DNA of 64,000 bases from Candidatus Undinarchaeota archaeon (GTDB lineage: Archaea > SpSt-1190 > DYHY01 > CAZGQF01), in NCBI GenBank assembly GCA_964527545.1, contig CAZGQF010000003.1, positions 1,461-65,460 on the forward strand, given 5' to 3'. Under the pieces are notes generated by a model that ran no database searches, was not told where the DNA came from, and saw nothing but the letters and a program-made list of their open reading frames with translations. Each line of letters begins with the position of its first letter. Position 1 is the stretch's first letter. Shown piece after piece: positions 8,276-59,976 of the stretch. Position numbers and translations under genes: made by a program.

Positions 8276-8911
8276 TTATAAGCCTTCCTGAATCGTCCAT
8301 AACTTTTCAGACGGGTCGAACTCTATGAAACCTCTCCTCTGAAGCGACGAGAAGAGCGACGAGAGGTCCTCGAAGGAGAGCCTCTCCAGCCGCCCCATCT
8401 CGCCGCCGTTGACCACCAGCTCCACGAGGGCTGCCTTCTCCCTCCCATCCAGCCCCTCTTTCTCCGCCTTCAAACTCGCCCTCCTCGAGATCCCGAGCAG
8501 CCTGCCCCTCAACCTCTTCGCCGCCGACTCGAGTTTCTCGAGCTTTGCCCTCGTCTTTCTCGCCTCCACCCTCATCTCCTCAAGGCCCGGACTTCCCTTC
8601 GCCAAGGCCCCCTTCGCCTCAAGCTCCCCTGAGAGGCCCGTCTCGTAGAGGGCTGGGCCGAAGGAGGCTGTGAAGCTGAGAGACTTTGAGAGGCGGACGT
8701 ACTTGCGGGGGCGCCCCCTGTCCTGGCGGGAGAGGCGGAACTCCACTATGCCGCTCTCCCTGAGCAGGGAGATGTGGTCGTTGACCGCCTTCTGTCCAAC
8801 CCCCAGCTTTTCAGAGAGCTCGGACTTGAAGAAAGGCCTCTCGCTCAACAGGCGTAGCATCCTCCTTCGGGTGCTGTTGCCCATTATCTCGAAGAGCTCG
8901 TCCACCAGCAT
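8276..8911 (-). CDS. ArsR-type winged-helix transcriptional regulator with a coiled-coil C-terminal extension
   Basis: The HTH region is NSTRRRMLRLLSERPFFKSELSEKLGVGQKAVNDHISLLRESGIVEF. The start is placed at the ATG at 8911 (MLVDELFEIMG). The gene is divergent from the pilin genes. Confidence 0.7.
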   Translation of the reverse strand: MLVDELFEIMGNSTRRRMLRLLSERPFFKSELSEKLGVGQKAVNDHISLLRESGIVEFRLSRQDRGRPRKYVRLSKSLSFTASFGPALYETGLSGELEAKGALAKGSPGLEEMRVEARKTRAKLEKLESAAKRLRGRLLGISRRASLKAEKEGLDGREKAALVELVVNGGEMGRLERLSFEDLSSLFSSLQRRGFIEFDPSEKLWTIQEGL

Positions 8912-8928
8912 TGGATTAATGTAACAAA

Positions 8929-8970
8929 ATGTTATTAAAAGAGTTGCTGCGCAAACCATATTACTTTTCG
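8929..8970. promoter_or_regulatory. divergent promoter region (two A/T boxes) between the ArsR-type regulator and the pilin locus
   Basis: The box ttattaaaag (8931-8941) lies about 24 nt from the regulator ATG at 8911 on the minus strand. The box catattactttt (8957-8968) lies about 25 nt upstream of the GTG at 8986. Confidence 0.35.
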
Positions 8971-8985: not shown

Positions 8986-9171
8986 GTGAGAGGGATAACC
9001 CCGGTCATCGCCATCATCTTGTTGTTGCTCATGGCCGTCGCCGCCGCGGGCGGCTTCTACTTCGTCTCGATATGTGGGAAACCTATGGTTTCCCCCCTAG
9101 CCGTCCACCACCCTTTCCTACGTCCTGTCTTCGCCTCCGGCTCGACAGGACACGGGGGTGAGTCGGCTTGA
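8986..9171 (+). pseudogene. 5' fragment of a pilin-adhesin gene (pilin signal/TM segment only)
   Basis: Codons from the GTG at 8986 encode VRGITPVIAIILLLLMAVAAAGGFYFV. The first ~33 nt are identical to the start of the 10842 gene. Similarity stops at about 9066, and the frame then continues as unrelated sequence to a stop overlapping the TTG start at 9168. Confidence 0.5.
9076..9094 (+). promoter_or_regulatory. perfect 8-bp hairpin (gggaaacc-tat-ggtttccc) between the pilin fragment and the first full pilin gene
   Basis: The inverted repeat was read directly from the sequence. It lies just after the point where the fragment loses similarity to its paralogs. Confidence 0.3.
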
Positions 9172-10805
9172 GAGGGATCACCCCTGTCATCGCCATCATC
9201 CTCCTCTTGCTGATGGCCGTCGCTGCGGCCGGCGGCTTCTACTTTGTTTACCAGGGCTTCACAGAGAGCGGAGAAGAGTCGGGCTCGACGCAGATAGAGC
9301 AGCTCGGCGAGACTTCGCTTGCCGCCATCCAGATCGAGTCCGCGGCGGGGGGGCGGCTCTACGTCCGCAACGTGGGCGCGTCGGACATAGACCTCTCGAA
9401 GATGACTGTCTACGTGGAGAACCAGCCTGTGAGCGTGAACAGGTCGTCGGACACTCTCGCGGAGAGGGAAAGGGCGGTCCTCAAGCTGACGGAGATGCCT
9501 TCGTGTTCTTCGGAGAAGTGCGAGGTGAAGATATCGGGTACTGCCTCGACTTCGAAGAAGGTCGACCTTGCGAAACTGCTCTGCTCCTCAGACGCGGACT
9601 GCTACTCAAGCGAGTCCTGCACGGACGGCGTCTGCGTGGGGGAGGGAGAAGAGGAGACCACCTGCGGGAACGGCATCTGCGAGACTGGCGAGTACGGCTA
9701 CGAATGCTTCGTCGACTGCCACCCGGAGTCGTTGCTCCTCGTAGCGAAAAACTCAACCGACGATGGAGACCTCGTCGCCATCTACGACTGGAACGGCACG
9801 AGCTACGCGAGGGCAGGCAACCTCACCAACACCGACCTGAAGTACTGGTGGCTCCCACTCACGACCTTCCTTCCCAACGGCGACGCTGTCTCAGCCTCCT
9901 ACTTCTCCTGGAACGGCCAAGAGGACTACAGGGACCTCTGGCACACGAGGTACGACGGCTCCTCCTGGTCCTCGCCGCAGAACATCACCAATTCGCCGAG
10001 CAGGAAGCTGTTCTATTTTGGTGGGGCGGAAGTCAACTCCACGGAGGACATCATGGCGGTCTGGGTGGAAGACGGATCCGACAAGAACGAAATCTACTGG
10101 GCCTCCTATGCTGACGGGAGCGTCTCACCTCCAAGCGCCATACCAGACACCAACACCGACACCTACCCCTACATGTGGTCCTTCGCCTTCGCCCCCGATG
10201 ACGAGGGCTACATCTTCTTCACCAACAGCACACTGAATGCCGGCATGAACAACCAGGTCGTCAAGACGGTCAGGTGGAACGGAGACGGGTGGGGTTCCCC
10301 CTCCACGCTTGTCTCCTACCCTTCCAACAACAGGGCATCCCACTACGCGCTCGACTTCGCCTCTGACGGCAACGGAATCGCGGCGTGGGTCCACCAGAAC
10401 TCAACAAACTATCGCAAGCTGAAGTACGCGACATACGACGGCTCCGCCTGGACCTACCAGGGCAACTTCGACGATTCTTCCCCCCCGACCAACGAAACGA
10501 CAATCGCGGCCACGTCGATGGCCTACGACCACCTGGGCAACCCAATGTTCGCCGCAATCCACACAAACAATGACCCGTCAGTCTTCACACAATACCACAG
10601 GTATGCCAACGGAGGGTGGAGCGAAGGGACCACCTTCCCGACTGGCATGGCCCTGGAGCAGACATTCCTCTCGAAGGCCGGCGACGGCTCCCTCTTCGCC
10701 TTCTCCATAAACTTCATGGCCATGCAGGTCGAAGGCAGGTCAGAGTACTACTGGAGCTCCTGGGACGGGAGCGCCTGGGGCGAGTTCGTGGAGATGGGCG
10801 AGTAG
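9168..10805 (+). CDS. large pilin-adhesin paralog 1: archaeal type IV pilin N-terminus, Cys-rich module and Asp-box-like repeat domain
   Basis: The N-terminus is (M)RGITPVIAIILLLLMAVAAAGGFYFV, the archaeal pilin N-terminal type. TTG start with GGGGGTGA about 8 nt upstream. The C-terminal part carries about 7 repeats such as YDWNGTSY, RYDGSSWSSPQNITN, RWNGDGWGSPSTL, TYDGSAWTYQGN and SWDGSAWGEF. Confidence 0.8.
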   Translation: MRGITPVIAIILLLLMAVAAAGGFYFVYQGFTESGEESGSTQIEQLGETSLAAIQIESAAGGRLYVRNVGASDIDLSKMTVYVENQPVSVNRSSDTLAERERAVLKLTEMPSCSSEKCEVKISGTASTSKKVDLAKLLCSSDADCYSSESCTDGVCVGEGEEETTCGNGICETGEYGYECFVDCHPESLLLVAKNSTDDGDLVAIYDWNGTSYARAGNLTNTDLKYWWLPLTTFLPNGDAVSASYFSWNGQEDYRDLWHTRYDGSSWSSPQNITNSPSRKLFYFGGAEVNSTEDIMAVWVEDGSDKNEIYWASYADGSVSPPSAIPDTNTDTYPYMWSFAFAPDDEGYIFFTNSTLNAGMNNQVVKTVRWNGDGWGSPSTLVSYPSNNRASHYALDFASDGNGIAAWVHQNSTNYRKLKYATYDGSAWTYQGNFDDSSPPTNETTIAATSMAYDHLGNPMFAAIHTNNDPSVFTQYHRYANGGWSEGTTFPTGMALEQTFLSKAGDGSLFAFSINFMAMQVEGRSEYYWSSWDGSAWGEFVEMGE

Positions 10806-10841
10806 GAAAAGCCATAATACTGCAGAAGGAGAAAGAGGGAC

Positions 10842-12509
10842 ATGAGAGGGATAACCCCGGTCATCGCCATCATACTCCTCCTTTTGATGGCGGTCGCGGC
10901 AGCTGGAGGATTCTATTTTGTTTATCAAGGCTTCACAGAGGAAGGGGAAGAGTCTGGGTCGACGCAGATAGAGAGCCTCGGGGAGCAGTCTCTCGCCGCC
11001 ATCCAGATCGAGTCGGCGGCGGGAGGGAGGATCTACGTGAAGAACGTGGGGGCAAGCGACATCGACCTGAGCAAGGCGAGAGTCTACGTCGAGAACGTCC
11101 CCTACAACGTGAACACCTCTTCTGACACTCTCGCGGAGAGGAGTCGTGCCGTGCTCAAGTTCACGGAGAGACCTTCTTGCGCGTCTGACGAGTGCGAAGT
11201 CAAGATCTCCGGTGCTGCCTCGACGTCGAAGAAGGTCGACCTTGCGAAACTCCTCTGCTCCTCAGACGCAGACTGCCTATCAGGAGAGGCCTGCCAGGGA
11301 GGAGTCTGTTTTGAAGGGGGCGGGACAAGCTGCGGAGACGGCACGTGCGACGAAGGCGAGACTTCATCGAGCTGTCCGGCAGACTGCTATTGCGGAAACG
11401 ACCAATGCGACTCTGACGAGGACGGCGAGACCTGCTTCCCCGATTGCGGCCCAAGGTCGCTCTTTTTCACTGTCCTTGAAGACCAAGTGACCCTCGACAG
11501 CGACGTCGTCGTCCACGACTGGAACGGGACGACCTACTTGAGGGGCGAGAACCTCACCAACGACACAATCACATACAGCGCCTTCGGCGCAGAGTACTGG
11601 GACGGGACATCGCTCTCACTCGGCATAACTGGCAGCATCATGGATAGCTCCAGCATGGAGGTCTTCTGGTCGCAAAACGACGGCTCCGGGTGGTCTGTCC
11701 CCGACAACATCACTGAGAACAGCTGGTTCGACATGTACCTCCTCGACAACGTCGGCTTCAACTCGACGCACGCAATAGCGGTCTGGGCTGCTGGCAGCGA
11801 CTTCGAGAACGTCAGCTGGTCCTCTTTCGACGGGACTGAGTGGTCGGAGGCAGAGAACATCACGGGCGTGAGGAACACAGACGACCTCCCCACCTTCGAG
11901 TTTCACCCGGACGGGAAAGGAATCGCCCTCTGGCCTGACAAGATATCGACGTCCGCCTGGCTCAACTACTCTGTCTGGGACGGCGGATGGCTGCCACCCG
12001 ACGACACCTTGGTCGGCTTTGAAGGTGGGGGGTGCGAGTACGAGATCGAGGATATCAAGGTTGCCTCGAACTCGACCCATCTCATGGCGGTCTGGGACGT
12101 GCTCTACGGAGAGTGCGGGCTTGACCCTTACAGGATCACGCAGTGGGCGACCTGGGACGGAAGCGGCTGGAGCAGTGTGGAGAACGTAAGCGACGAGTTC
12201 AGCGACCTCCGTCCTTTCGCGCTGGGAGCCGACGACGGCGGATGGGTGCTCGTCTCCAACAATGGAACGTCACCGCAATACTGGCCGGAGTGGTTCTCCT
12301 GGCAGGACGGCTGGATTTACGAAGGGAACATCACCGGCGACCCAGAGGGGTTCCCGGTCTACATCGTGGAGAACGAGAACGGGGCGAAGCTGCTCCTGAT
12401 GTTCGATCTCATCAACGACTACGAATCGATTGCGAGGTTCTCGCACTGGACAGGGGAGACCTGGTCCGGGGTCACCGAAATCCCAGAGCCTGTCTTCTTC
12501 CTCGGCTGA
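10842..12509 (+). CDS. large pilin-adhesin paralog 2
   Basis: The first ~140 aa are the same as paralog 1, with about 18 substitutions by manual alignment. Two CG.G.C..GE....C..DC modules follow. The C-terminal domain is divergent, with WNGTTYLRGENLTN, NDGSGWSVPDNITE, FDGTEWSEAENITG, WDGSGWSSVENVSD and WTGETWSGVTEI. Confidence 0.8.
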   Translation: MRGITPVIAIILLLLMAVAAAGGFYFVYQGFTEEGEESGSTQIESLGEQSLAAIQIESAAGGRIYVKNVGASDIDLSKARVYVENVPYNVNTSSDTLAERSRAVLKFTERPSCASDECEVKISGAASTSKKVDLAKLLCSSDADCLSGEACQGGVCFEGGGTSCGDGTCDEGETSSSCPADCYCGNDQCDSDEDGETCFPDCGPRSLFFTVLEDQVTLDSDVVVHDWNGTTYLRGENLTNDTITYSAFGAEYWDGTSLSLGITGSIMDSSSMEVFWSQNDGSGWSVPDNITENSWFDMYLLDNVGFNSTHAIAVWAAGSDFENVSWSSFDGTEWSEAENITGVRNTDDLPTFEFHPDGKGIALWPDKISTSAWLNYSVWDGGWLPPDDTLVGFEGGGCEYEIEDIKVASNSTHLMAVWDVLYGECGLDPYRITQWATWDGSGWSSVENVSDEFSDLRPFALGADDGGWVLVSNNGTSPQYWPEWFSWQDGWIYEGNITGDPEGFPVYIVENENGAKLLLMFDLINDYESIARFSHWTGETWSGVTEIPEPVFFLG

Positions 12510-12585: not shown

Positions 12586-13725
12586 TCATCCAAGGCTCCA
12601 GCTGCCTAGGTGCGCCTCGACAGGTATGCTTTCCTCGACGCTTTCAACACCTGTGTAGAGAGTAAACTCCAGATTTAGGGGTTCTGCAGGCCTTGAGACC
12701 AGGCCGCGCCAAGCACCCTTGAGGAATGCACCCATAAGCTCCTTCTTGGAGAGATTGTAGTGCTGATGGTCCTGTTTCCCCCTGAGAGCGTCCACGAACT
12801 TGAGGCCCGCATAGGAGATCAGGCTCGGTATCGCTGTCAAGGCGTTGTTCACCCTCTTCAGCATACCAACCGTGTTGGCATTGCGCTGGACCTCGTAATT
12901 GAAACCCTCATCTCCGTTGTGGACTTCGTCCCTGCAACCGCCGTAGTCGACCCTGAGATGGAGCACTTCAGCGCCTGGGACTATCACTATCTTTCCGTAT
13001 TTCTTCAGTTTGTTGCACAGCAGTGTCTCTGCCCTCAGCGAAGGGGAGTTGAACGATGGGTCGAAGCCGTTCACTTCGAAAAGAAAGTCCCTGCGAATCG
13101 CACAGTTCCCTCCTGGTACGTGATCTGTCTCCTGCAGTTCCTCGACCGCCCCGTTGACGCCATCTGAATGCAGGTAGGGAAAAGAACGGAAACGCCTGTA
13201 TTTTTTCGTGCCGTACTTCACCAGCTCCGGTCTCTGCTCTGTGTAGACAGCGCCGCATGAGACTGCCGCCCCATTTTCGAGAGGCTTTGTCAGCTCCGTC
13301 GCCCATCTGTCCGGGAAGAAAGGGAGCACATCATCGTCGGCGAACAGGATCTTGTTTCCGGAAGCGGCCGCGATACCGACGTTCCTTGCATCTGCCAACC
13401 CCCTCCCGTTCTTGAGCGTCACGAGCTTGAACTTGGCTCGTCCGTGCTCCGTGTTGATAGCAGAGATGCCATCTTTGAGCACTGATCCTGAGCAGTCAGT
13501 GGAAAAGTCGTCAACAACCACTACCTCGTCTATTCCCTTCAGCGAGTCCAAATAAGCAAGATGGCCCTTCTCCCCGACCAAACCCTCCTTCCAGATTGCC
13601 TCCCTGTTCTTCGTCGGGACGAAAAGAGTAACTCCTGTCACAGAGTCACATTTAATTAACCCTTTATAGTAGTTTGTGAGGGGCGGCAGGACTTGTTCGC
13701 AAAAGACTGGACCGGAAAAAGACAA
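12586..13725 (-). CDS. family-2 glycosyltransferase
   Basis: GT-A features: LFVPTKNRE, VVVVDDFSTDCS and the FADDDV (DxD) motif. The start is uncertain. It is either the TTG at 13725 or the GTG at 13641, which lies about 27 nt downstream of a tataaaggg box. Confidence 0.75.
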   Translation of the reverse strand: MSFSGPVFCEQVLPPLTNYYKGLIKCDSVTGVTLFVPTKNREAIWKEGLVGEKGHLAYLDSLKGIDEVVVVDDFSTDCSGSVLKDGISAINTEHGRAKFKLVTLKNGRGLADARNVGIAAASGNKILFADDDVLPFFPDRWATELTKPLENGAAVSCGAVYTEQRPELVKYGTKKYRRFRSFPYLHSDGVNGAVEELQETDHVPGGNCAIRRDFLFEVNGFDPSFNSPSLRAETLLCNKLKKYGKIVIVPGAEVLHLRVDYGGCRDEVHNGDEGFNYEVQRNANTVGMLKRVNNALTAIPSLISYAGLKFVDALRGKQDHQHYNLSKKELMGAFLKGAWRGLVSRPAEPLNLEFTLYTGVESVEESIPVEAHLGSWSLG

Positions 13726-13776: not shown

Positions 13777-15045
13777 GTGCTCCAGTTCGGTATAGGGAGC
13801 GCTGTGGGTGACGGCGAAGAGACGCCTGTCGGCTTCGTCAACGAGGAGGGATACTTCGTCGACCTGCCGCCCCTCAGCGACGACGACCTCTTCAGGATAG
13901 TGAGAATAGCTGAGAAGTACGAGGAGACGGAGCTGAGCGTTGAGGAGATAGTGGAGGCCTATGAGAAAGAGCTGGAAGAGGAGAGGGGCGTCTCTTTGGG
14001 AGAGGGGAAGAGAGTCTACTCGCGCATCCTCCGCTCCCTCACTGACGAGTCGCTCGGGCCGATCCACTTCCTCCTGCAGGACCCGCAGATAGAGGAGATA
14101 ATGGTCAACGGTGTGGGGGAGCCGATCTTCGTCTGCCACAGGGAGAGGGGGATGCTCTCCACCAACCTCTTCTTCAAGAGCGGCGACTATTTCTGCGAAG
14201 TCGCCAACAGGGCGCTCCGGTCGCTGGGGAGGAGGGTGGACGAGAGGAGTCTCAGGGGGCATGGCCTCCTGCCCAACAGGGACCGAATCTCAGTGATGGT
14301 CCCGCCCTACGCGAAGAGGCACACCCTTGCAATCCGGCGGTTCTCTGTCGCGCCGTTCACTGTGGCAGACCTCGTGAGGAGGGGGATGCTCTCCTCTCGC
14401 CAGGCCGCCTTTCTCTGGATGGTGATGGAGAGCGGCTCCGCCAACCTCGGTGTGGTGGGGAACACGGGGGCGGGAAAGACGACACTCCTCAACGCCCTCC
14501 TCCGCTTCGTGCCGAGAGAGGCGAGAGTTATCTGCGTGGAGGAGACGCCTGAGATAAGGCCGCCCCAGTCGCAGGTGGTCCAGCTGGTCTCCACACAGGG
14601 CCTCTCGCTCAGGGACGCAATCAGCGACAGCTTAAGGCTGAGGCCAGACCGCGTCGTCATAGGCGAGGTGAGGAGCGACGAGGAGGTGAGGGCGCTCGTG
14701 GAGAGCTGTCTGGCCGGGCAGGCGCTTGGGACCTATTTCACCTACCACGCAGAGAACGCCCAGTTCGCCCTCAGGCGGATGGTGGGGCAGGGCGTCAGGG
14801 AAGACGACCTCGAGGCGATCGACCTGCTGGTGGTCTGCAGGAGGGACGTCAGCAAGGGAAAGGTCAGGCGGAGAGTCGTCTCCATCTTCGACAGAGAAGA
14901 TGGAAAGCTGACCGACTCGTGCGAGTCTAAGAGGATGAAGAGGCTGGAGAAAAGGACTGGGAGCCTGGAAAAGAGGGAGAGTTTCCTGGAAGGGTTCGAG
15001 GGAAGCGACGAAAAGTTCTTCGAGGAGGCCTCCCGTGTCCATTAA
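13777..15045 (+). CDS. type II/IV secretion-family ATPase (FlaI/VirB11/CpaF-like pilus assembly ATPase)
   Basis: Walker A is VVGNTGAGKTTLLNALL. Also present are the Asp box VCVEETPEI, the Walker B/His-box region RPDRVVIGEVRSDE, and N-terminal QDPQIEEIMVNG. GTG start. Confidence 0.85.
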   Translation: MLQFGIGSAVGDGEETPVGFVNEEGYFVDLPPLSDDDLFRIVRIAEKYEETELSVEEIVEAYEKELEEERGVSLGEGKRVYSRILRSLTDESLGPIHFLLQDPQIEEIMVNGVGEPIFVCHRERGMLSTNLFFKSGDYFCEVANRALRSLGRRVDERSLRGHGLLPNRDRISVMVPPYAKRHTLAIRRFSVAPFTVADLVRRGMLSSRQAAFLWMVMESGSANLGVVGNTGAGKTTLLNALLRFVPREARVICVEETPEIRPPQSQVVQLVSTQGLSLRDAISDSLRLRPDRVVIGEVRSDEEVRALVESCLAGQALGTYFTYHAENAQFALRRMVGQGVREDDLEAIDLLVVCRRDVSKGKVRRRVVSIFDREDGKLTDSCESKRMKRLEKRTGSLEKRESFLEGFEGSDEKFFEEASRVH

Positions 15046-15676
15046 GCTGGCTGTTGGCCTCGCCCTGGCCCTGCTCTTTCTCTTCTTCAGGGCGCCGGAG
15101 ATCTGGAGGGCCTACAAAAAAAGAGAGCGGAGGAAGAAGGTGGAGGCTGATCTTCCCTTCGCCGCCCACTACGTCGCGAGTCTCCTCGAGGCAGGACTGC
15201 CCCTCGAGGACGCGCTGGAGAAAACTGTGGATAGCAACTTCGGGGAGCTGTCAAAAATTCTGGGAGAGGCGATGGAGAAATTCGGAAAAGGCCGGTCGCT
15301 CGCCAAGTCGCTTGAGTCGGCGGGAAAGGGGATGGAGAAGAGCTCACTCTCGGATCTTCTCGCAGTTTTCTGCCACATCAACCGCACGGGGAGCCACAGT
15401 AGGGCAACAGAGAGCCTCAAGCTGCTCGCCGACTGTTTCGAGGAGAGGGCGGTCAACGGCTACAGGGAGTTCATCTCCCGTTCGCAGGTGCTCCTGACCG
15501 TCCACGTAGCCTTGACAGCCCTCCTGCCCGCAGTCCTACTCTTCCTCTCCGGGGTCTCCTCCTCTCTCGGGGACCCACTGCTCTCCCGAGGACAGCTCTC
15601 CATCCTTTTCTGCGCTCTCTTCCCCCTCACCGCGGGCGCGGCCAACATGATGCAGGGGTTGATGAGGCCGTGCTGA
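15035..15676 (+). CDS. pilus platform membrane protein, half-size TadB/TadC (T2SSF-domain) type
   Basis: N-terminal TM segment, a cytoplasmic helical T2SSF-like segment (LPFAAHYVASLLEAGLPLEDALEKTV...SLAKSLESA), and C-terminal TM helices. It overlaps the ATPase gene by 11 nt. Confidence 0.65.
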   Translation: MSIKLAVGLALALLFLFFRAPEIWRAYKKRERRKKVEADLPFAAHYVASLLEAGLPLEDALEKTVDSNFGELSKILGEAMEKFGKGRSLAKSLESAGKGMEKSSLSDLLAVFCHINRTGSHSRATESLKLLADCFEERAVNGYREFISRSQVLLTVHVALTALLPAVLLFLSGVSSSLGDPLLSRGQLSILFCALFPLTAGAANMMQGLMRPC

Positions 15677-16185
15677 GCTCCGACCTCTACAGGGCAGCCA
15701 GGTCTGAGAGCAGCGACCTGGCCGAGATCGTGAAAGTTTTGGAGTCAGAGTTCTTCGGGGAGGCGGCCCGCGCCATACCCCGCTCCTCCCGCTCCGCGGC
15801 GACAGTGCTGAGGGAGAGAGCGAAGGGCGACCCCAAGATGGAGAGCGCAGTCGAGATACTCGTGCTCGGCGCCAGGGAGAAGTCGCTCCTCCTCGACGGC
15901 GCCAGGAGGATGGAGAGGATGGAGCGGCTGGAGAGGGAGAGAAAGAGCGCCACCTCTGCGCAGAGGTACACTCTCCTCGCGGCGAGCCTTCTCTTCGTCC
16001 CCTTCATCCTCGCGGCGACTGTCTCCATCTCCCGACAGCTGGGCGGCGCCCTCCCAAGCGAAAGCATACTCTTCTACGTCGCAGTGCAGGCCGCCGTCTC
16101 CTCTTTCGCGCTGGAGACGAGGGCAAAAGCGCTCTTCCCCCTCCTCTCGATCGCTGTCTACAAGTTGACGGAGGTGATAATGTGA
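15670..16185 (+). CDS. second half-size platform-like membrane protein
   Basis: Same architecture: a soluble helical N-terminal part followed by TM helices (YTLLAASLLFVPFILAATV...). The GTG start overlaps the previous stop. Pairing of two half-size proteins resembles TadB/TadC and Methanococcus EpdJ/EpdK. The family assignment is inferential. Confidence 0.5.
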   Translation: MLSSDLYRAARSESSDLAEIVKVLESEFFGEAARAIPRSSRSAATVLRERAKGDPKMESAVEILVLGAREKSLLLDGARRMERMERLERERKSATSAQRYTLLAASLLFVPFILAATVSISRQLGGALPSESILFYVAVQAAVSSFALETRAKALFPLLSIAVYKLTEVIM

Positions 16186-37642: not shown

Positions 37643-38326
37643 CTAATCGGCCAGCTCGCCTATGAGATGAAAGAGATCTTCCTCGCTCAGCTCGCCGCCC
37701 CGGCGGGAGACCCTCATCTTGCCGTTGGAGTTCAGGGCGACAGTGTGGAGGGCTCCGCTCGGCAGCGAGACCTTCGCCACCAGCTCCTTGACCTTGCCCT
37801 TCGACCTGAAACTCTTGAACGGCTTGGAAGAGGAGAGGCTGTCGCCCTTGAGCTGGAGGTCGCGCAGGTAGGGGTCCTCTATGGAGTGTATCCTCGCCTT
37901 TCTTACGTCTTCGGCCATCTCCACCAGCCTGTTCATGGCGATGGCGTCGAAAGACTGCCGAGTCAGGGAGCAGCCGAGTGCGGAGGCGACCTCCTCAACG
38001 ACCTCCTCGACCACGCTCGAGTTGGACGACTCCACAATCAGGAGGTCGAGCCTCACGTTGAACCTCAGTCGGAGAGTGTAGACTTTCTCGTAGGAGAGCT
38101 CCCTCTCAACGAGGCCGCCGTCGTAGCTCCGGAAGCTGATCGCCCTTTTCTTGGTGAAGAGAAAGTCGAACCTGGTCTCCTGGAGCACGTCGTCCCTCTC
38201 GCTCTTCACTATCCCCCTCTCCCCGTCGAACTTGAGCGGCGCTAGGCGCGAGCGGAGGGGAGTCGGGTCCATCAACGCCAGGTTCTCGGGCGTGTAGAGC
38301 CAGATTGTCTTGCTCCTCGCCATCAA
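37643..38326 (-). CDS. hypothetical protein (227 aa)
   Basis: There is a 4-nt overlap with the upstream GT4 gene. No family recognised. Confidence 0.55.
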   Translation of the reverse strand: MMARSKTIWLYTPENLALMDPTPLRSRLAPLKFDGERGIVKSERDDVLQETRFDFLFTKKRAISFRSYDGGLVERELSYEKVYTLRLRFNVRLDLLIVESSNSSVVEEVVEEVASALGCSLTRQSFDAIAMNRLVEMAEDVRKARIHSIEDPYLRDLQLKGDSLSSSKPFKSFRSKGKVKELVAKVSLPSGALHTVALNSNGKMRVSRRGGELSEEDLFHLIGELAD

Positions 38327-39453
38327 AGCGCCCCCCCGTAGACCGCCTTGGTCTTCTTCGCTATCTCGTCCCAGTCGAAGAGCCCTGCTCTCTTCCTCCC
38401 CTTCATTGAAAGCTCCTCGCGCAGGGCCTCGTCCTCAAGGAGCATGTCCAGCTTTTTCGCTATGTCGGTCGCGCTCTCCGGGTCGACCTTGAGGCCCGCT
38501 TCGCCGACCACATCTTTCATCCCGCCGACGTCCCCCACCACGACCGGCTTGCCCATCGCCATCCCCTCGAGAGCGACTATGCCGAACGGCTCGTACCTGG
38601 AGGGGAAGCAGCAGATGTCTGCGGCGGCGAGGAGGTCCAGCCTCTCCTCCTCGCTGACGAACTCGTTTTTGAAGACAACCCTGTCGGTGACGCCCGCCTC
38701 TGCTGCGAGGGACTTGAGGTGGCCTTCCCACCCCCCGACGCCGAGGACGACAAGGCGCGCATCGTGGTTGATCTTGCTCATCGCCAGTATCAGCTTGTCG
38801 ATCCCCTTCACCCAGTCGAGGCGGCCTATGAAGAGCACCAGCGGCTCCCCGGGCAGTCCCAGCTTCTTCCTCTCCACTTTTCGCGGGGAGAATTTCTCCA
38901 TGTCGATTCCGTTGGGCACGACCTCAATCTTCTCCTCCGGGAACTTCATCTTCACCAGCTCCGCCTTCATGAAGTCGCTGACGGTGATGACCTTGTCTGC
39001 CAGCCTACCCCCCATGTGCTCCAGCTTCCTGACAACGTCGGAGCCCCGGCCGCCGGTCCTGCCTTCCTCTGTCGAGTGCATCGTCAAGACGAACTTCTTG
39101 CCGCGGTTTTTGGCCAGCGCCCCGGCCAGGACTGAGAGCCAGTCGTGGCAGTGGACGACGTCGCCCTCTGCGAGGGCGGAGGCGAGTATGTTGAACTGGA
39201 GGTAGCGGGTCATGATGGAGGGGTCGCCCCACCTCTGGAGCTCCTCGGCGAGGAGGAAGTCCATGTAGTTGGCGTCGAACTGCCGCAGCCGCTTCACCTC
39301 CACGAAGCCCTCCATGCCGCTCTCCTCTCCCGGTGTCAGGACCTCGACCTTGTCGCCCAGCTTGGCCAGGGAGCGCGTCAGGTAGTAGCAGTGGACCCCG
39401 AGGCCGCCCACGGTGTTGGGCGGGAACTGCTCTGTCACGAAGCTCACGAACAT
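38323..39453 (-). CDS. family-4 (GT-B) glycosyltransferase
   Basis: The N-terminus is FPPNTVGGLGVHCYYLTRSLAKLGDKVEV. The EX7E-type region is PSRYEPFGIVALEGMAMGKPVV. Confidence 0.85.
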   Translation of the reverse strand: MFVSFVTEQFPPNTVGGLGVHCYYLTRSLAKLGDKVEVLTPGEESGMEGFVEVKRLRQFDANYMDFLLAEELQRWGDPSIMTRYLQFNILASALAEGDVVHCHDWLSVLAGALAKNRGKKFVLTMHSTEEGRTGGRGSDVVRKLEHMGGRLADKVITVSDFMKAELVKMKFPEEKIEVVPNGIDMEKFSPRKVERKKLGLPGEPLVLFIGRLDWVKGIDKLILAMSKINHDARLVVLGVGGWEGHLKSLAAEAGVTDRVVFKNEFVSEEERLDLLAAADICCFPSRYEPFGIVALEGMAMGKPVVVGDVGGMKDVVGEAGLKVDPESATDIAKKLDMLLEDEALREELSMKGRKRAGLFDWDEIAKKTKAVYGGAL

Positions 39454-39491: not shown

Positions 39492-41099
39492 TCAAGCCGC
39501 CTGCCATGGCCCCACGTAGACAGGATCTGACCAGGAGTTGCCGTTCCAGACCGTCCAGCGCCAGGGGTTATTCGCACCCATCACGAAGGCGCCGTAGTCC
39601 ATGTCGATGGCGAAAAGGGTGTTGTCCGGAGTCTTCGAAATGGACGGGAGAAACTTGCCGCTCGCCTCCGGGAAGGTCTGGTTGGAGCTCCAAGTGCCGT
39701 CGTAGGTGAAGTAGAAGTCCCAGAACGTCGAACCTCCGTCGTGAGCCATGGCCGAACAGATCGACTTCCCCTCGTTGTCGTGGGCGACGCCCATAGGCAC
39801 GTACTCCGACCCCGATACAGACTCCACGGGCGTCCAGCCCTCGAAGTTGCCCTGATAGGTCCAGGAGGAACCGTCATAGGTAGCGTATTCGAAAACGAAG
39901 TAGTTTGTCTTGTTGGAAAGCACCCAAACCGCCATGGCATCACCGTTGTCGGCGAATGAGAGAAGAGGCCAGTAACCGAAGTTGAGGGCGTTGGCGTTCT
40001 CGACGTTGGGGTAGTTGGCGACGACGCCCTGGTCGTCCCAGGCGGAGCCGTCCCAGTGAGAGTAGAGAATCTTGTGGTTGTTGTGGGTCCCGAAGTCTGA
40101 TGTGTTCGCGTAGATGGCAAAACCAGAGTTGTCGGGAGCGAAAGCAAATGTAAGTCCGCTGTCCACACCCCAGTCCGTCAGGTTGTCTGGGTCAGAAGCA
40201 ACGCCGTCCTGAAGAGAAACCCACTGGGGCCTCCTGTTGAAGGACGGCCCCAATCTCCCTTCCCAGACGAACATAGCATTACCTGCAGAGTCGACGTCCG
40301 ACCAGGAGTCGACCAGTCCTCCTGAACCGACGTCGTATTGGCTGCTGAGGTTGGAGGGATACGACCAGCTCGAGCCGTCGTACTTGGAGTGAAAGCAGGA
40401 GCTCCAGTCTCCATTGTAGGAAGAGCCGGACACGATGTGGTTCCCGTTGGAGAGAAAAGAGGTCTGATGCAGTGTCGCAACCGAGGGGTCATCCGCGTCG
40501 GTGACATTCTCCGTGAAGTCGTAGGTGGTGCCGTTCCAGTCGTATCTCGCCAGCCAGCTGTCCTGGCCGATTCCTACGGGAAGCAGGAGGGGCCCAGGCA
40601 TTTCGTCATCGGTCGTCTCTTCCTCCCCCACACAGACTCCACCATAGCAGTTCTCGCCCGGGTAGCAGTCCGCATCTGAAGAACAGGACAACTTCGAAAG
40701 GTCGAGAGTCCGCGACGTCGAAGCCGCTCCCGAGATCTTGACTTCGCACCTTTCCGACGAGCAGGACGGCCGCTGCGTGAACTTGAGCACGGCACGACTG
40801 CGCTCCGCGAGAGTGTCAGAAGACGCGTTCACGTTGTAGGGGACGTTCTCGACGTAGACGGAGACTTGAGAAAGATCTATGGCCGACGCACCGACGTTCT
40901 TCACATAGATCCTGCCGCCTGCGGCCGACTCTATCTGGAGTGCTGCAAGAGATGTCTCGCCGAGCTGCTCGATCTGCGTGGAGCCGGACTCCTCCCCGCT
41001 CTCTGTGAAGCCCTGGTAGACGAAGTAGAAGCCGCCCGCCGCGGCCACGGCCATGAGAAGCAGGAGGACAATGGCGATGACTGGGGTGATGCCTCTCAC
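39492..41099 (-). CDS. large pilin-adhesin paralog 3
   Basis: GTG start. The N-terminus (M)RGITPVIAIVLLLLMAVAAAGGFYFVYQGFTESGEESGSTQIEQLGE... is near-identical to the genes at 9168 and 10842. The C-terminal repeats are YDWNGTTYDFTENVTD, KYDGSSWSYPSNLSS, HWDGSAWDDQG, TYDGSSWTYQGNFEG and VWNGNSWSDPVYV. It has no CG.G.C module. Confidence 0.8.
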   Translation of the reverse strand: MRGITPVIAIVLLLLMAVAAAGGFYFVYQGFTESGEESGSTQIEQLGETSLAALQIESAAGGRIYVKNVGASAIDLSQVSVYVENVPYNVNASSDTLAERSRAVLKFTQRPSCSSERCEVKISGAASTSRTLDLSKLSCSSDADCYPGENCYGGVCVGEEETTDDEMPGPLLLPVGIGQDSWLARYDWNGTTYDFTENVTDADDPSVATLHQTSFLSNGNHIVSGSSYNGDWSSCFHSKYDGSSWSYPSNLSSQYDVGSGGLVDSWSDVDSAGNAMFVWEGRLGPSFNRRPQWVSLQDGVASDPDNLTDWGVDSGLTFAFAPDNSGFAIYANTSDFGTHNNHKILYSHWDGSAWDDQGVVANYPNVENANALNFGYWPLLSFADNGDAMAVWVLSNKTNYFVFEYATYDGSSWTYQGNFEGWTPVESVSGSEYVPMGVAHDNEGKSICSAMAHDGGSTFWDFYFTYDGTWSSNQTFPEASGKFLPSISKTPDNTLFAIDMDYGAFVMGANNPWRWTVWNGNSWSDPVYVGPWQAA

Positions 41100-44696: not shown

Positions 44697-45983
44697 GTGG
44701 CGAAGCTGGTCGGCGTGAAAGGGCAGACTGCAATAGGGACGCTGCTGGTCTACGGCTTCGTCCTGGTCATAATCTCCATCGCCGGCTACGTCCTCATCAG
44801 GGGAGGGATAATCGACTCCACCTCCTACGCCAGCTCCCACTGCGTCGGGCTCGGGAAGCTCTCCTACAGGGATCACCTCCTCCCCAAAAACGGCCAGTTC
44901 AGGATAGAGGTCGGGAACGGCGTAGGCTACAGGATAGACGACCTGCGAGTCGTCGAAGTGGGGAGCAGCCACGTCTCCTGCGGGAGCGGCGGCGAGAGGA
45001 CTATGAGGTCGGGGAGCTTCGACATCCTGAAGTCTGGCAGCTGTGAGACAGAGCTGGAGGAGGGCGAGTCCTACCAAGTGAACATCACCATAGAGTACTC
45101 TCTCAAGGGACTGACTCACAGGGAGAGGGGGGAGTGCACCGGCCGCATAGAGCCGGGGAGGCCGACCTTCGAGGTGGGGGATGCCGAGGCAGGAAGCTCC
45201 TGGGTCTCCGTTGAGATGGAGAACACATACATCTCGCCGGTGGTGGTGGCCAGCTTCCTGGAGGAGAGCAACACGCTTCCCGCCTCAGTCAGGATCGCCA
45301 ACGTGACGTCAAACAGCTTCGACTTGAAACTCCAGAACCCAGGCAACTCCTCGCTCTCTGAGGAGGAGGTCCACTACCTCGTGGTCGAGGAGGGGAGATG
45401 GACTCTCGACGGCGTGAAGCTGGAGGCGCACAAGTACGATACAGACACTGTCGGCCACAGCGGAGACTGGGACGGCGACGCATTCTTTTTCGCCCACTCT
45501 TTCAGCTCGCCGCCCGTCGTGCTGCATCAGGTGATGAGCAGCAGCGACTCGTCCTGGATAACCACCTGGGTCAGCGACCCGTCATCTGCCGGGAGCCCGC
45601 CCACGGCGACTGGCCTCCAGATCGGCCTCAACGGGGCGGAGGCGACGACGTCGCACGGCGAGGAGACCGTGGGCTGGGTCGCCATCGAGAACCAGACTCA
45701 AGGCGAGACAGAGGAGTTCACCTTCGGGACCATGACTGTGAGCGGTGTGAAGGGCCACGACAACGGCTGCTTCTCCTCGAGCCTGCCCTCGGGGGGCATC
45801 AGGGTGCCGAAGGTTGTGGCGAGCCAGCTGTCGATGGCCGGCAGCAACGGCGGCTGGTCGGTGCTCTGCCAGCTCTCCGGCTCAAGCGTGGGCGTCCACA
45901 TAGAGGAAGACCAGGAAGCGGACAGCGAGAGGAGCCACGCGGACGAGGAAGTGGGAGTCGTCTTTTTCAGGGAGAGAGATTAG
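44697..45983 (+). CDS. class-III-signal (prepilin-like) surface protein with three tandem beta-rich repeats
   Basis: GTG start. The N-terminus is (M)AKLVGVKGQTAIGTLLVYGFVLVIISIAGYVLI, which carries the KGQ prepilin motif. Three colinear ~90-aa units follow, each with P.VV... and a ...EE.VG(W/V)V(A/F) ending. Confidence 0.65.
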   Translation: MAKLVGVKGQTAIGTLLVYGFVLVIISIAGYVLIRGGIIDSTSYASSHCVGLGKLSYRDHLLPKNGQFRIEVGNGVGYRIDDLRVVEVGSSHVSCGSGGERTMRSGSFDILKSGSCETELEEGESYQVNITIEYSLKGLTHRERGECTGRIEPGRPTFEVGDAEAGSSWVSVEMENTYISPVVVASFLEESNTLPASVRIANVTSNSFDLKLQNPGNSSLSEEEVHYLVVEEGRWTLDGVKLEAHKYDTDTVGHSGDWDGDAFFFAHSFSSPPVVLHQVMSSSDSSWITTWVSDPSSAGSPPTATGLQIGLNGAEATTSHGEETVGWVAIENQTQGETEEFTFGTMTVSGVKGHDNGCFSSSLPSGGIRVPKVVASQLSMAGSNGGWSVLCQLSGSSVGVHIEEDQEADSERSHADEEVGVVFFRERD

Positions 45984-57744: not shown

Positions 57745-58494
57745 CTACAACTCCTTCACGAGCTTCTTGATCTTCTCAGTCCTGTACTCGTAGGGGATCT
57801 TCTTCTTTGCCAGGGCGGCCCGGACAGCGTAGGCGCCGGCGAGGCCGCGCACTTCGGGCATGACGAACGGGAGAGTGTCCATCACCTTCTTGCCTAGGCC
57901 GGGGTCTATCGCCTTCTTTGTCTCGTCGATCATCCCCTCGAAGCGGGAGATGTCGACGCCAAGCTTATCGAAGAAGAAGGGAAGCTTGAGGAGTACTTCG
58001 TCGTCGATCCTGGCCGCGAACTCGATGAACTTGCGGAAGTGGTCGCCCTCCTCTATCTCCAACTCTATGGTCTTGTCCCAGAGCTTGTGCTTCGCCTGGA
58101 ACCTGAGCCTGCCCGCCGTCTTGAAGGTCCGCGACTCCTCGACTGTGGAGGGGTCGTAGGCAAGCGGGACTTCGCTCACGATCATGGCGTTCCTCATGAC
58201 ATAGGCAAGTATCATCCTCCGCAGTCCGCGAGGCACGGAGGTCACCGCCTTGCGGACCGCCTTCTTCAGGTTTTTGTCGAGGACCATTCCCACGCTGTCC
58301 CTTGCCTTCTTCAGTTTCGTCTTCTCCACGCCGAGCTCGACGAGGAGGTCTGGTATCTTCCTCTCCACCTCTTTGTCGAGGATTGTCGCGAAGGTCAGGA
58401 ACTTGCTTATCTCGTCCGTCGGTCTCACGCGGCTCCTGTAGACCGCTTTCCAGGAACGGTGGCTCGCCAAGAAATCGAGTGTGCCTTTCTCCAT
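57745..58494 (-). CDS. hypothetical protein with an internal duplication (2 x ~100 aa)
   Basis: The two halves align colinearly. Half 1 is KFLTFATILDKEVERKIPDLLVELGVEKTK...AYVMRNAMI. Half 2 is KFIEFAARIDDEVLLKLPFFFDKLGVDISR...AYAVRAALA. No family recognised. Confidence 0.6.
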   Translation of the reverse strand: MEKGTLDFLASHRSWKAVYRSRVRPTDEISKFLTFATILDKEVERKIPDLLVELGVEKTKLKKARDSVGMVLDKNLKKAVRKAVTSVPRGLRRMILAYVMRNAMIVSEVPLAYDPSTVEESRTFKTAGRLRFQAKHKLWDKTIELEIEEGDHFRKFIEFAARIDDEVLLKLPFFFDKLGVDISRFEGMIDETKKAIDPGLGKKVMDTLPFVMPEVRGLAGAYAVRAALAKKKIPYEYRTEKIKKLVKEL

Positions 58495-58515
58495 GGCCGT
58501 CCCCCACCCGGCCTG

Positions 58516-58531
58516 TTAATAAAACTTATAT
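58516..58531 (+). promoter_or_regulatory. TATA box for tRNA-Leu
   Basis: ttaataaaacttatat is centred about 28 nt upstream of the tRNA 5' end. Confidence 0.5.
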
Positions 58532-58553
58532 CGGGTCCGCGCCATGCTGGGAT

Positions 58554-58638
58554 GCGGGGGTACTCAAGTCCGGAAAAGAGGCAGGACTTAAGATCCTGTT
58601 GCCTAGCGCATGCGTGGGTTCAAATCCCACCCCCCGCA
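58554..58638 (+). tRNA. tRNA-Leu (anticodon UAA), class II with a long variable arm
   Basis: The acceptor stem is GCGGGGG/CCCCCGC. The anticodon arm is CAGGA-CUUAAGA-UCCUG. The T arm is GUGGG-UUCAAAU-CCCAC and the discriminator is A. Confidence 0.9.
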
Positions 58639-59976
58639 TTGGGAGAGAACGCGCGGCCTTGGAGACTCCTCCTGCTGTCGGTGGTTTTCGGCTCTTTTGT
58701 TTTCAGGGCTTTCCTGGTCGGCAACACCACCTTCAACTCGTGGGACGAAGCGGAGTTCGCCCTCCTCGCTGAAAGCCTGAGAGAGGGGCGGTACTCCCTG
58801 ATGGGCGAGCCGTTCAAGCTCCATCCTCCCTTCTTTGCAATGCTGAACGCGTCGGTCAGGGCAGCATCAAAATTGGGGCTCATCTCCTACAGGCTGGTCT
58901 CCGTCGTCATGGGCTCCATGGCCGCCGTCGCCCTCTACCTTTTCGGCAAGAAGCTGGACGGGAGAGCGGGCACCTATGCCGCCATGCTGCTCTCGCTCAG
59001 CCCTTTCTTCTTCCAGTTCTCCTCCAGGGCGTTCTCTGACGCGACACTCTCCTTCTTCCTTCTCTTCTCAGTCTACACGCACCTCTACAGGCGGGGTGTC
59101 TGCTGGCTGATGGTCTTCTCTTCCGCCCTTATCAAGCTCTCCTCGCTGGTCGCCCTCGTTCTCATGAACGCCCTCGACCTTTTCGAAGGCCGCCTGAGAG
59201 AGGGGATGAGCGTCTATCTCCCCTACCTCTCCGCCTATGCCTTCTGGAAATGCTTCTCATTCCTCAACTCCCTGCGCATGGGCGAGCCGGCCGGAGAGGC
59301 GGCAGGCGGGTACAACTGGCTCTTGGAAGGCCTCGGTGTGGTGGTGCCCGAGAGCTCGAGGCAGTCCGCCCTCTTCTACCTCCAGAACCTCCACTTCCTG
59401 GCGCCTTTCTTCCCCGTCCTCGCTCTCTCTGCCTTGGCTGTTTTCTTGGCGGAGAGGAGGAGAAAGGAGCTTGCCATGCTTTTGGTGCCGCTCCTCTTCA
59501 TGACACTCTGGAGCGTGAAGACGCCGCGCTACTTTGTCCCCGTGGCGCCCATCCTCTTCCTGCCAATCGGCGTTGCTCTCTCCCGACTGGAGAAGGTGAA
59601 CAAGCTGGTGCCGCTCGCCCTCATTTTCCTTGTCGCCCTACAGTTTCCGGAGAGAACGTCCTGGATGGCAGACGACAGTTTTGAGTGGCTCGACTGCGGG
59701 GCCTACTTGAAGGAGAACACTGAAAGCGGCATAGCGACAACTTCGCCAATGGAGGTCGGCCTCTACTCCGGCCGAGAGGTGGCAGTCCCCCACGAGCACA
59801 CACTGGAGCAGTTCACAAAGATCCAAGAAAACTCGGGATGGGTCGTCCTGGCGGAGAGGTACGAGGGGGACTTCCAGCGCATCCACGAAGACGTGGAGGG
59901 AAGGAGACTGCCGCTAGTCCAGGAGGTGCCTTACGCAGGCATCCGCGTCCTGGAAAACACGAGGCGTCAAGACTAA
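58639..59976 (+). CDS. GT-C-fold glycosyltransferase (PMT/ArnT-like, GT39/GT83-type)
   Basis: There are more than 10 TM helices, and the first-loop acidic motif is SWDEAEFALLAESL. The start is uncertain, either the TTG at 58639 directly after the tRNA or the GTG at 58681. The ORF-track N-terminus (58039-58638) runs through tRNA-Leu and antisense to the neighbouring gene, so it is discarded. Confidence 0.7.
   Translation: MGENARPWRLLLLSVVFGSFVFRAFLVGNTTFNSWDEAEFALLAESLREGRYSLMGEPFKLHPPFFAMLNASVRAASKLGLISYRLVSVVMGSMAAVALYLFGKKLDGRAGTYAAMLLSLSPFFFQFSSRAFSDATLSFFLLFSVYTHLYRRGVCWLMVFSSALIKLSSLVALVLMNALDLFEGRLREGMSVYLPYLSAYAFWKCFSFLNSLRMGEPAGEAAGGYNWLLEGLGVVVPESSRQSALFYLQNLHFLAPFFPVLALSALAVFLAERRRKELAMLLVPLLFMTLWSVKTPRYFVPVAPILFLPIGVALSRLEKVNKLVPLALIFLVALQFPERTSWMADDSFEWLDCGAYLKENTESGIATTSPMEVGLYSGREVAVPHEHTLEQFTKIQENSGWVVLAERYEGDFQRIHEDVEGRRLPLVQEVPYAGIRVLENTRRQD

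Follow-up and report, generated by a model that had tools for sequence, protein, structure and literature searches.

At positions 8986 to 12509 of the 64,000-nucleotide stretch of archaeal DNA that we analyzed (the window), two adjacent genes encode proteins that begin like archaeal type IV pilins and continue into a large domain built of short repeats. The question raised by this locus is whether such proteins are filament subunits that carry binding heads. An earlier note, made from the letters of the window without database searches, had described both open reading frames (ORFs), and both were found exactly where it had placed them: gene A at 9168–10805 (545 residues, TTG start) and gene B at 10842–12509 (555 residues, ATG start), on the forward strand and separated by a gap of 36 nucleotides. 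The note had reported only these two genes; the window also holds a third full paralog, gene C (39492–41099, reverse strand, 535 residues), 27 kb distant from A and B, and the 27-codon 5′ stump of a pilin gene (8986–9066, forward strand). We consider it fairly probable that these three genes encode adhesins in the form of modular type IV pilins, with a carrier polymerized by the adjacent Tad/Epd-like machinery and with glycan-binding heads.

The N-terminal pilin module

The domain boundaries of the gene A product, set from a structural model and an alignment, placed the pilin at residues 1–137, a linker with cysteine knots at 138–185, and a propeller at 186–545. In gene A the leader M-R-G occupies nucleotides 9168–9176, the hydrophobic helix 9177–9263, the beta-sandwich 9264–9578, the two four-cysteine knots 9579–9722, and the predicted seven-bladed propeller 9723–10802. 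Gene B has its pilin module at 10842–11252, a longer Cys-rich stalk of three four-cysteine units at 11253–11450, and a predicted propeller at 11451–12506; gene C has the pilin module and one cysteine knot. The N termini of A and B are both MRGITPVIAIILLLLMAVAAAGGFYFVYQGF, which bears out the start (M)RGITPVIAI noticed earlier, read here as M-R-G/ITPVIAI. BLASTP aligned A and B at 48% identity over 464 residues (E 3e-105); by region, identity was 100% in the helix (residues 2–32), 83% in the beta-sandwich (33–137, about 18 substitutions), 60% in the Cys-rich stretch (138–185), and 29% in the C-terminal domain (186 to the end). The shared module of about 140 residues with about 18 substitutions claimed in the note is therefore real. 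Its statement that the C-terminal domains "diverge almost completely" went too far, because at 29% identity and with a common repeat framework they are still homologous, and the word "giant" is overstated for 545 residues. The propeller of gene C is 33–36% identical to those of A and B.

In all three proteins the short leader M-R-G is followed by ITPVIAIILLLLMAVAAAGGFYFV, and the hydrophobic helix is uninterrupted. The NCBIfam model TIGR02537 (archaellin/type IV pilin N-terminal) scored 21.7, 21.7, and 20.5 bits with A, B, and C, respectively, against a cut-off of 20, and a weak end-to-end similarity to UpsA, a 136-residue Ups pilin, extended over residues 1–133. When a profile of residues 1–140, built from 23 family members, was run against PDB sequences, its best match was 8fk7 (a solved 144-residue chain deposited as "Flagellin"; E 5e-5), spanning the helix and the beginning of the sandwich; weaker matches were the Aap filament chain 8q30, Iho670, and 6w8u (a 142-residue chain deposited as "pilin"). 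AlphaFold modeled residues 1–140 as a long helix followed by a beta-sandwich, with a predicted local distance difference test (pLDDT) score of about 88 over residues 51–140. In a Foldseek search with this model, all six matches at E ≤ 1e-3 were archaeal proteins of the type IV pilus superfamily (TM-score, TMt, 0.31–0.63), comprising FlaG, FlaF/FlaG, the A. pernix (Aeropyrum) archaellin, the Haloferax volcanii type IV pilus, and the S. acidocaldarius Aap filament. The profile check of the pilin N terminus proposed in the note was thus answered favorably by TIGR02537, by 8fk7, and by the fold matches.

Across the family, the leaders before [KR]G differ in length and in sequence (MRG, MSRG, MESDVKG, MIEVLSVRG), and the 25 residues after [KR]G are nearly invariant; a variable leader joined to a nearly invariant helix is the pattern expected for a cleaved class III signal peptide. 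Comparison of paralogs gave a ratio of nonsynonymous to synonymous substitution (dN/dS) of 0.01–0.04 for the helix and a proportion of synonymous differences (pS) of 0.45–0.78. A recent gene conversion or cassette mechanism behind the identical N termini was rejected because pS there is so high; with synonymous divergence at that level, the identical helices are the result of purifying selection. Judged by its sequence and by its predicted structure, the N-terminal stretch of about 137 residues is a complete archaeal pilin.

The stretch that follows the pilin module is rich in cysteine. Residues 138–185 of A hold two four-cysteine units, C-x5-C-x5-C-x4-C and then CGxGxC...C..DC; the second type of unit occurs twice in B and is absent from C. 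As the number of such units among the window copies ranges from one to three, the length of the spacer between pilin body and head differs among the paralogs.

The 27 codons of the stump at 8986–9066 encode VRGITPVIAIILLLLMAVAAAGGFYFV, the exact leader and helix peptide. They are identical to gene A at 68 of 81 nucleotides and, over their first 36, match the beginning of gene B at 97% identity, a likeness that includes the 4 nucleotides upstream. Beyond the 27 codons the stump departs from the family; its ORF stop, at 9171, overlaps the TTG start of A, and its tail (9067–9167) had no match elsewhere in the window or in the fetched loci. We concluded that the stump is probably what a deleted or recombined paralog has left behind. 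Directly upstream of it, and not of gene A, the sequence is AT-rich and promoter-like.

The C-terminal head

Each protein carries seven units of the signature [YW]-D-G-S-x-W-S-x-P-x-N-[ILV]-[TS], spaced 47–59 residues apart. They lie at about 208, 262, about 315 (degenerate), 370, 423, 479, and 532 in A; at 227, 281, 329, 379, 438, 487, and about 540 in B; and at 188, 240, 296, 349, 408, 466, and 518 in C. The pattern is kept across the 41-member family, and this conservation, together with the sequon enrichment described below, argues that it is not due to chance. A full-length AlphaFold model, built on the 41-sequence family alignment, had a mean pLDDT of 84.6 and a predicted TM-score (pTM) of 0.70, with pLDDT near 90 over most of the propeller. 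Residues 188–541 were modeled as all-beta with about 24–28 strands; the blade number of seven is that of the repeat units counted in the sequence, not on the coordinates. The best PDB matches found by Foldseek were the Photorhabdus lectins PLL, PHL, PLL2, PLL4, and PLL5 (E 9e-12 to 1e-9, TMt 0.60–0.67 over about 385–400 columns, 12–14% identity). Next came GH33 sialidases, GH145, the PL25 and PL42 lyases, and the fucose lectin AofleA, all at 9–17% identity, with sialidase matches reaching down to E 3e-11. The viral matches to the head were sialidase-like and tail-fibre propellers.

No family model in Pfam or NCBIfam matched the propeller domain of A, B, or C directly; at E ≤ 1, no BNR Pfam model was found on A or B, and NF052348 (the NCBIfam beta_propeller_lectin model) matched none of the three proteins. 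When profiles from 17 propellers of the family were used in an exhaustive search, 16,648 proteins were found at E ≤ 1e-3, 187 of them at E ≤ 1e-30. The top matches listed were mostly 400–2,400 residues long (one had 7,019), with several matched stretches each. Sampled relatives carry BNR_4 or BNR_2, some over the same stretch, and some have a type IX secretion system sorting domain, Big_5, or PASTA. The BNR link is transitive: the propeller profile reached the proteins P0061 and P0071 (E 1e-50 to 1e-47), which themselves match BNR_4 (E 3e-12 and 8e-19). Another relative, P0100, matched NF052348 below its cut-off. Several side observations concern this wider set. Many of the top matches listed were large bacterial proteins, and most sampled relatives matched the NCBIfam "PDIAV motif-containing lipoprotein" model, only one of them above its cut-off. 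We found no specific family model for the 16,648 proteins; Pfam covers them partly, through BNR_4 and BNR_2.

The sequence-profile search of the propeller against the PDB gave Asp-box-level matches only (E about 0.2). HMMER aligned the family consensus "ysrYDGssWSspenlt" to the Asp-box region of NanA, "YSDDDGKTWSAPQDIT" (E about 0.2), which sets the consensus motif YDGSSWSSPENLT (in gene A, YDGSSWSSPQNIT) against NanA DDGKTWSAPQDIT. Compared at this E of about 0.2, x-[YW]-D-G-[ST]-x-W and the canonical S-x-D-x-G-x-T-W have the same G-to-W spacing, and the Asp is one position off. From the model, the repeats, and the profile search, we predict that the head folds as a seven-bladed beta-propeller belonging to the BNR/sialidase clan. 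The note had fared well on most of these points: its quoted motifs were all located (RYDGSSWSSPQNITN in A; NDGSGWSVPDNITE, FDGTEWSEAENITG, and WDGSGWSSVENVSD in B), its count of six to seven units agrees with the seven found per protein, and the six- or seven-bladed propeller that it expected from AlphaFold and Foldseek is matched by a confident all-beta model whose nearest structures are PLL/PHL and then sialidases. Its likening of the repeats to Asp boxes holds at the level of the clan, in view of the NanA alignment and the BNR_4/BNR_2 relatives, with the Asp shifted by one position.

Propeller columns conserved in at least 60% of the 41 members contain only W, G, D, N, S, T, F, P, Y, A, V, and M; they lie in the repeat framework, where Trp, Gly, and the D/N/T of the repeat motif dominate. 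No Arg, Glu, Lys, or His propeller column reached 60% across the 41 members, so the Arg triad and the Tyr/Glu pair of sialidases are absent. An active sialidase was rejected on this ground, the catalytic residues not being conserved across the 41 members. Within the family, mean pairwise identity drops from 0.91 (helix) through 0.65 (sandwich) to 0.29 (propeller); a repertoire of binding modules would be expected to look like this, the carrier being conserved and the head diversified. In the paralog comparison dN/dS of the propeller was 0.5–1.0, a saturated value and not evidence of positive selection.

N-x-S/T sequons number 9 in A, 13 in B, and 8 in C. The family mean is 10.2 per protein as against 4.8 in composition shuffles, and the density is 1.89 per 100 residues as against 0.25 in 12 cytoplasmic proteins of the window, an enrichment of about twofold and about sevenfold, respectively; for A and C taken singly, the excess over their own shuffles was not significant. 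Ten alignment columns have a sequon in at least 40% of members, and the sequon falls at the D-I-T position of sialidase. The claim that each blade carries a sequon did not hold, since motifs ending in N-x-S/T make up two of seven in A and five in B.

The family and its genomic setting

The full-length family has about 40 members of 494–566 residues (and one fragment of 461), from NCBI, JGI, and Logan assemblies. It is limited to a handful of assemblies, from uncultivated and probably DPANN-related archaea, with 3–16 paralogs per contig: 16 on a 479-kb, 6 on a 78-kb, 4 on a 488-kb, and 3 on a 47-kb NCBI contig, and 3 on the window's own contig of 130 kb, with further members on a few Logan contigs, and relatives are present in metagenomes such as SRR28370465. 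Our scan of the GTDB representative genomes found N-terminal relatives only and no full-length member. Subunit A of the V-ATPase is 56–59% identical to proteins from metagenome-assembled genomes (MAGs) of Woesearchaeota and about 45% identical to everything else, and by this sequence comparison the host is probably a deep, DPANN-like archaeon.

Among the GTDB representatives, the [KR]G/ITPVIAI module occurs in MAGs of Aenigmatarchaeota, Nanohaloarchaeota, and Woesearchaeota, where it is almost always found on proteins of 129–190 residues, often encoded in tandem pairs or triplets. The existence of these short relatives indicates that A, B, and C contain an entire ordinary pilin in their first 137 or so residues, to which the remainder has been added. 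A few DPANN genomes (MAGs of Aenigmatarchaeota, of Nanohaloarchaeota, and of unclassified archaea) carry other heads on this module, namely Laminin_G_3 (LamG, a concanavalin A-like lectin domain), Fibrinogen_C, FG-GAP, or CARDB, at loci L002, L003, L018, L022, L032, and L035 and in proteins P0037 and P0043–P0045. One of these, P0037 with FG-GAP repeats, is 62% identical to A over the first 160 or so residues and has the same first cysteine knot. From these fusions, modular pilins appear to recur across several DPANN lineages, and the notion of interchangeable heads put forward in the earlier note gains from them.

Genes for a filament assembly system lie 1.3 kb downstream of gene B, an association seen for A and B only. 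The first, at 13777–15045 (forward strand), encodes a CpaF/TadA-type assembly ATPase (Pfam T2SSE, E 2e-32). It matched the NCBIfam TadA-family (E 6e-42) and FlaI (E 7e-41) models, both below their equivalog cut-offs, and also resembles the bindosome ATPase BasE (E 1e-26); its closest named homologs are CpaF-family proteins from Altiarchaeota MAGs, at 47–56% identity. The second, at 15035–15676 (forward strand), encodes a membrane platform protein of T2SSF or TadB/TadC type (Pfam T2SSF, E 4e-12) with three hydrophobic segments in a simple hydropathy scan. The next ORF, at 15670–16185 (forward strand), had no Pfam match and may, from its position only, encode a second platform subunit; the C-terminal 70 or so residues of this small protein look hydrophobic in the translation, and an ABC-2 transporter pair is next downstream. 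The platform thus seems to be divided between two small ORFs, 213 and 171 residues long, of which T2SSF matches only the first, an arrangement more like TadB/TadC than like the single two-domain archaeal PilC/FlaJ.

Divergent from and upstream of the pilin genes, a regulator of ArsR/HTH_20 type is encoded at 8276–8959 on the reverse strand (Pfam HTH_5, E 4e-10; HTH_20, PF12840, E 1.6e-8). Regulators of pfam12840 are often near archaeal flaB genes (PMC4858521), and this one may be linked to the pilin genes. Between the pilin and assembly genes, a family 2 glycosyltransferase (GT2; 12586–13725, reverse strand; Pfam Glycos_transf_2, E 6.5e-16) might act in pilin glycosylation. A GT4 glycosyltransferase (38323–39453, reverse strand) directly follows gene C on the same strand, so that gene C, like A/B with GT2, has a glycosyltransferase neighbor. 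Two other ORFs of the window attracted our attention. One at 44697–45983 (forward strand, 428 residues) has the N terminus VAKLVGVKG/QTAIGTLLVYGFVLVIISIAG, resembling a different class III signal peptide, and a weak H-type lectin match (E 6e-4); on this evidence it may represent another type of surface protein resembling pilins. The other, at 58039–59976 (forward strand), encodes a 645-residue multi-pass membrane protein with weak GT-C matches (PMT_2, Glyco_transf_22) and could, from these matches, be a candidate lipid-linked-sugar glycosyltransferase acting on surface proteins.

Filament subunits, surface anchors, and known counterparts

We propose that the leader M-[KR]-G would be cut by a prepilin peptidase of PibD/EppA type encoded elsewhere in the genome, exposing ITPVIAI, and that the invariant helix and the 105-residue beta-sandwich would form a complete pilin body able to polymerize into a filament, with the adjacent CpaF/TadA-like ATPase and T2SSF platform powering assembly. 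The disulfide-knotted stalk of one to three four-cysteine units, with an acidic spacer, may keep the head off the filament. The predicted propeller would retain its repeat framework and no catalytic residues; given how strongly head surfaces differ between paralogs, the ligand may change from one paralog to the next and would most likely be a glycan of another cell or of a surface. N-glycosylation of the subunits is suggested by the conserved N-x-S/T sites. Several results weigh against pilus display of this kind. The Pfam model PF07790 (Pilin_N), which the earlier note had named, stayed below threshold (13.7–14.5 against a cut-off of 25.2), and so did PF01917 (Arch_flagellin; 18.2 against 29.5). 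FlaG and FlaF, the fold matches that rank first for the N-terminal module, are membrane-anchored members of the superfamily that do not form filaments. No prepilin peptidase (A24) was found among the window ORFs scanned, multi-pass membrane ORFs included, and no short major pilin with this N terminus was found in the window or among the matches from relatives' contigs. In the contexts fetched, the relatives' paralogs are mostly single among housekeeping genes, away from assembly genes.

The main alternative is that the proteins are anchored at the cell surface and are not filament subunits, the class III signal peptide serving for export and anchoring only and the propellers forming a cell-surface coat or a short pseudopilus-like array. 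Precedents are offered by the FlaF/FlaG stator proteins and by the Saccharolobus bindosome, whose sugar-binding proteins are archaeal non-pilin proteins with class III signal peptides. The resemblance of the ATPase to BasE, the top matches FlaG and FlaF, the lack of a short major pilin in the window and among the relatives' matches, and the scattering of members among housekeeping genes all favor this explanation. Nevertheless, we judge anchoring alone rather unlikely, because in neighboring lineages the same module makes up ordinary tandem pilins of 129–190 residues in the usual pilin-gene arrangement, the sequence profile has 8fk7, deposited as "Flagellin," as its best match, and a helix dN/dS of 0.01–0.04 suits the helix-helix packing of a filament better than a simple membrane anchor. 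We consider it quite improbable that the head is a working enzyme, that is, a glycoside hydrolase or polysaccharide lyase (GH33, GH145, or PL25/PL42-like) tethered to a pilin and degrading extracellular or host glycans. Foldseek did match GH33, GH145, PL25, and PL42 at E 1e-11 to 1e-8, and distant relatives carry BNR_2 or BNR_4; but identity to any enzyme is 9–17%, profile matches in the PDB go no further than the Asp box, the 41 members lack a conserved Arg/Glu/Lys/His column, Arg triad, or Tyr/Glu pair, and the surfaces are hypervariable between paralogs, at 29% mean identity. An artifact of annotation or assembly, in which a small pilin gene had been joined to a separate propeller gene, was considered only because pilins with this N terminus are typically 129–190 residues long; we found nothing in its favor, and it has next to no likelihood. 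The frames of A, B, and C are open and uninterrupted, the same architecture recurs in about 40 independent homologs assembled elsewhere (NCBI, JGI, and Logan), and the AlphaFold model is confident over the junction.

If A, B, and C are modular pilins, then the apparent lack of a short major pilin would mean that the filament carries a head of about 40 kDa on many or all of its subunits, or that a major pilin of another type was not detected. The headed subunits may cap the pilus or, since no short pilin with this N terminus was found in the window or among the relatives' matches, may decorate it along the shaft. In its strongest form, shaft decoration would have the propeller-headed pilins making up most or all of the filament, a "bottle-brush" pilus with a sheath of lectin-like propellers and with partners set by the repertoire of paralogs; this we regard as unlikely. 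Were it true, 3–16 dispersed paralogs with distinct surfaces and stalk lengths would decide which partner cells or surfaces are attached, and would represent an archaeal counterpart to the families of variable adhesins or receptor-binding proteins in a small, probably host-dependent archaeon. The family also poses a structural question, whether every subunit of an archaeal type IV pilus could bear a 40-kDa head.

For the recognition of partner cells and surfaces, and attachment to them, by small uncultivated archaea of the DPANN and related groups, this family supplies concrete candidates: a strictly conserved carrier bears a hypervariable, lectin-like head in many paralogs, and sister lineages have LamG, fibrinogen, FG-GAP, and CARDB heads on theirs. 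The heads could be expressed as soluble domains for glycan-array and host-binding tests. In ultrasmall bacteria, the Saccharibacteria, type IV pili drive host attachment (PMC9894109, PMC12206443).

The structures closest to the head are the Photorhabdus lectins PLL/PHL (5c9l, 5mxe, 6rg2, 8q83), whose entry titles describe complexes with fucosides, rhamnose, glucose, or galactose. These lectins are seven-bladed, soluble, and non-enzymatic. Unlike the window proteins, they are not pilin fusions; identity is 12–14%, and the repeat signature differs. With the sialidase/BNR propellers (BNR_2 PF13088, BNR_4 PF15892, NanA), the blade signature of the window family aligns to the Asp box and the residues after it at E about 0.2. 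The solved GH33 sialidases are six-bladed, whereas the window family has seven repeat units, [YW] at the Asp position, and neither the catalytic Arg triad nor the Tyr/Glu pair. The ordinary DPANN pilins have the same cleavage motif, helix, and sandwich size and, at most loci, 27–56% identity over residues 1 to about 90–140 (up to 75% where only the first 25 or so residues align); to their plan the window family adds a Cys-knot stalk and a propeller.

The tip adhesins PilY1/PilC also place a beta-propeller on a type IV pilus for adhesion, and their non-carrier part shows modular variation (PMC8179133). PilY1, however, is not a pilin; it docks on minor pilins through its propeller, which is therefore the carrier and not the effector, whereas A and B each possess both a class III signal peptide and a pilin body. 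They are related to PilY1 neither in sequence nor as a family: A and B had no match to the PilY1-type Pfam domain, and no PilY1 structure was among the top 50 fold matches.

A precedent in design is that of the bacterial modular pilins. In Streptococcus sanguinis, PilB (with a vWA module) has been shown to be an adhesin, its extra module mediating adhesion, and is proposed to sit at the pilus tip, and PilC carries a concanavalin A-like lectin module; lectin-type modules are common in such pilins, in a survey that covered only IPR012902 pilins (Raynaud et al. 2021, PMC8179133). PilB and PilC have the same design as A, B, and C, a small complete pilin module joined by a short linker to a bulky extra module. 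Here, however, the pilin module is archaeal (TIGR02537, helix and beta-sandwich) and not of the bacterial IPR012902 type, there are 3–16 paralogs per contig with no accompanying short major pilin seen, and a seven-bladed BNR-clan propeller is not among the modules named in the passages of PMC8179133 consulted. The literature that we searched held no description of archaeal pilin-propeller fusions, in keeping with the note's remark that no such family was known to be characterized. The principle is known from bacteria; what appears to be undescribed is the archaeal carrier with a BNR-clan propeller, the expansion of paralogs, and the apparent absence of a plain major pilin. The family would thus extend the modular-pilin principle, catalogued so far only for bacterial pilins, to the archaeal pilin superfamily, where the LamG-headed DPANN relatives are direct architectural analogues of S. 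sanguinis PilC.

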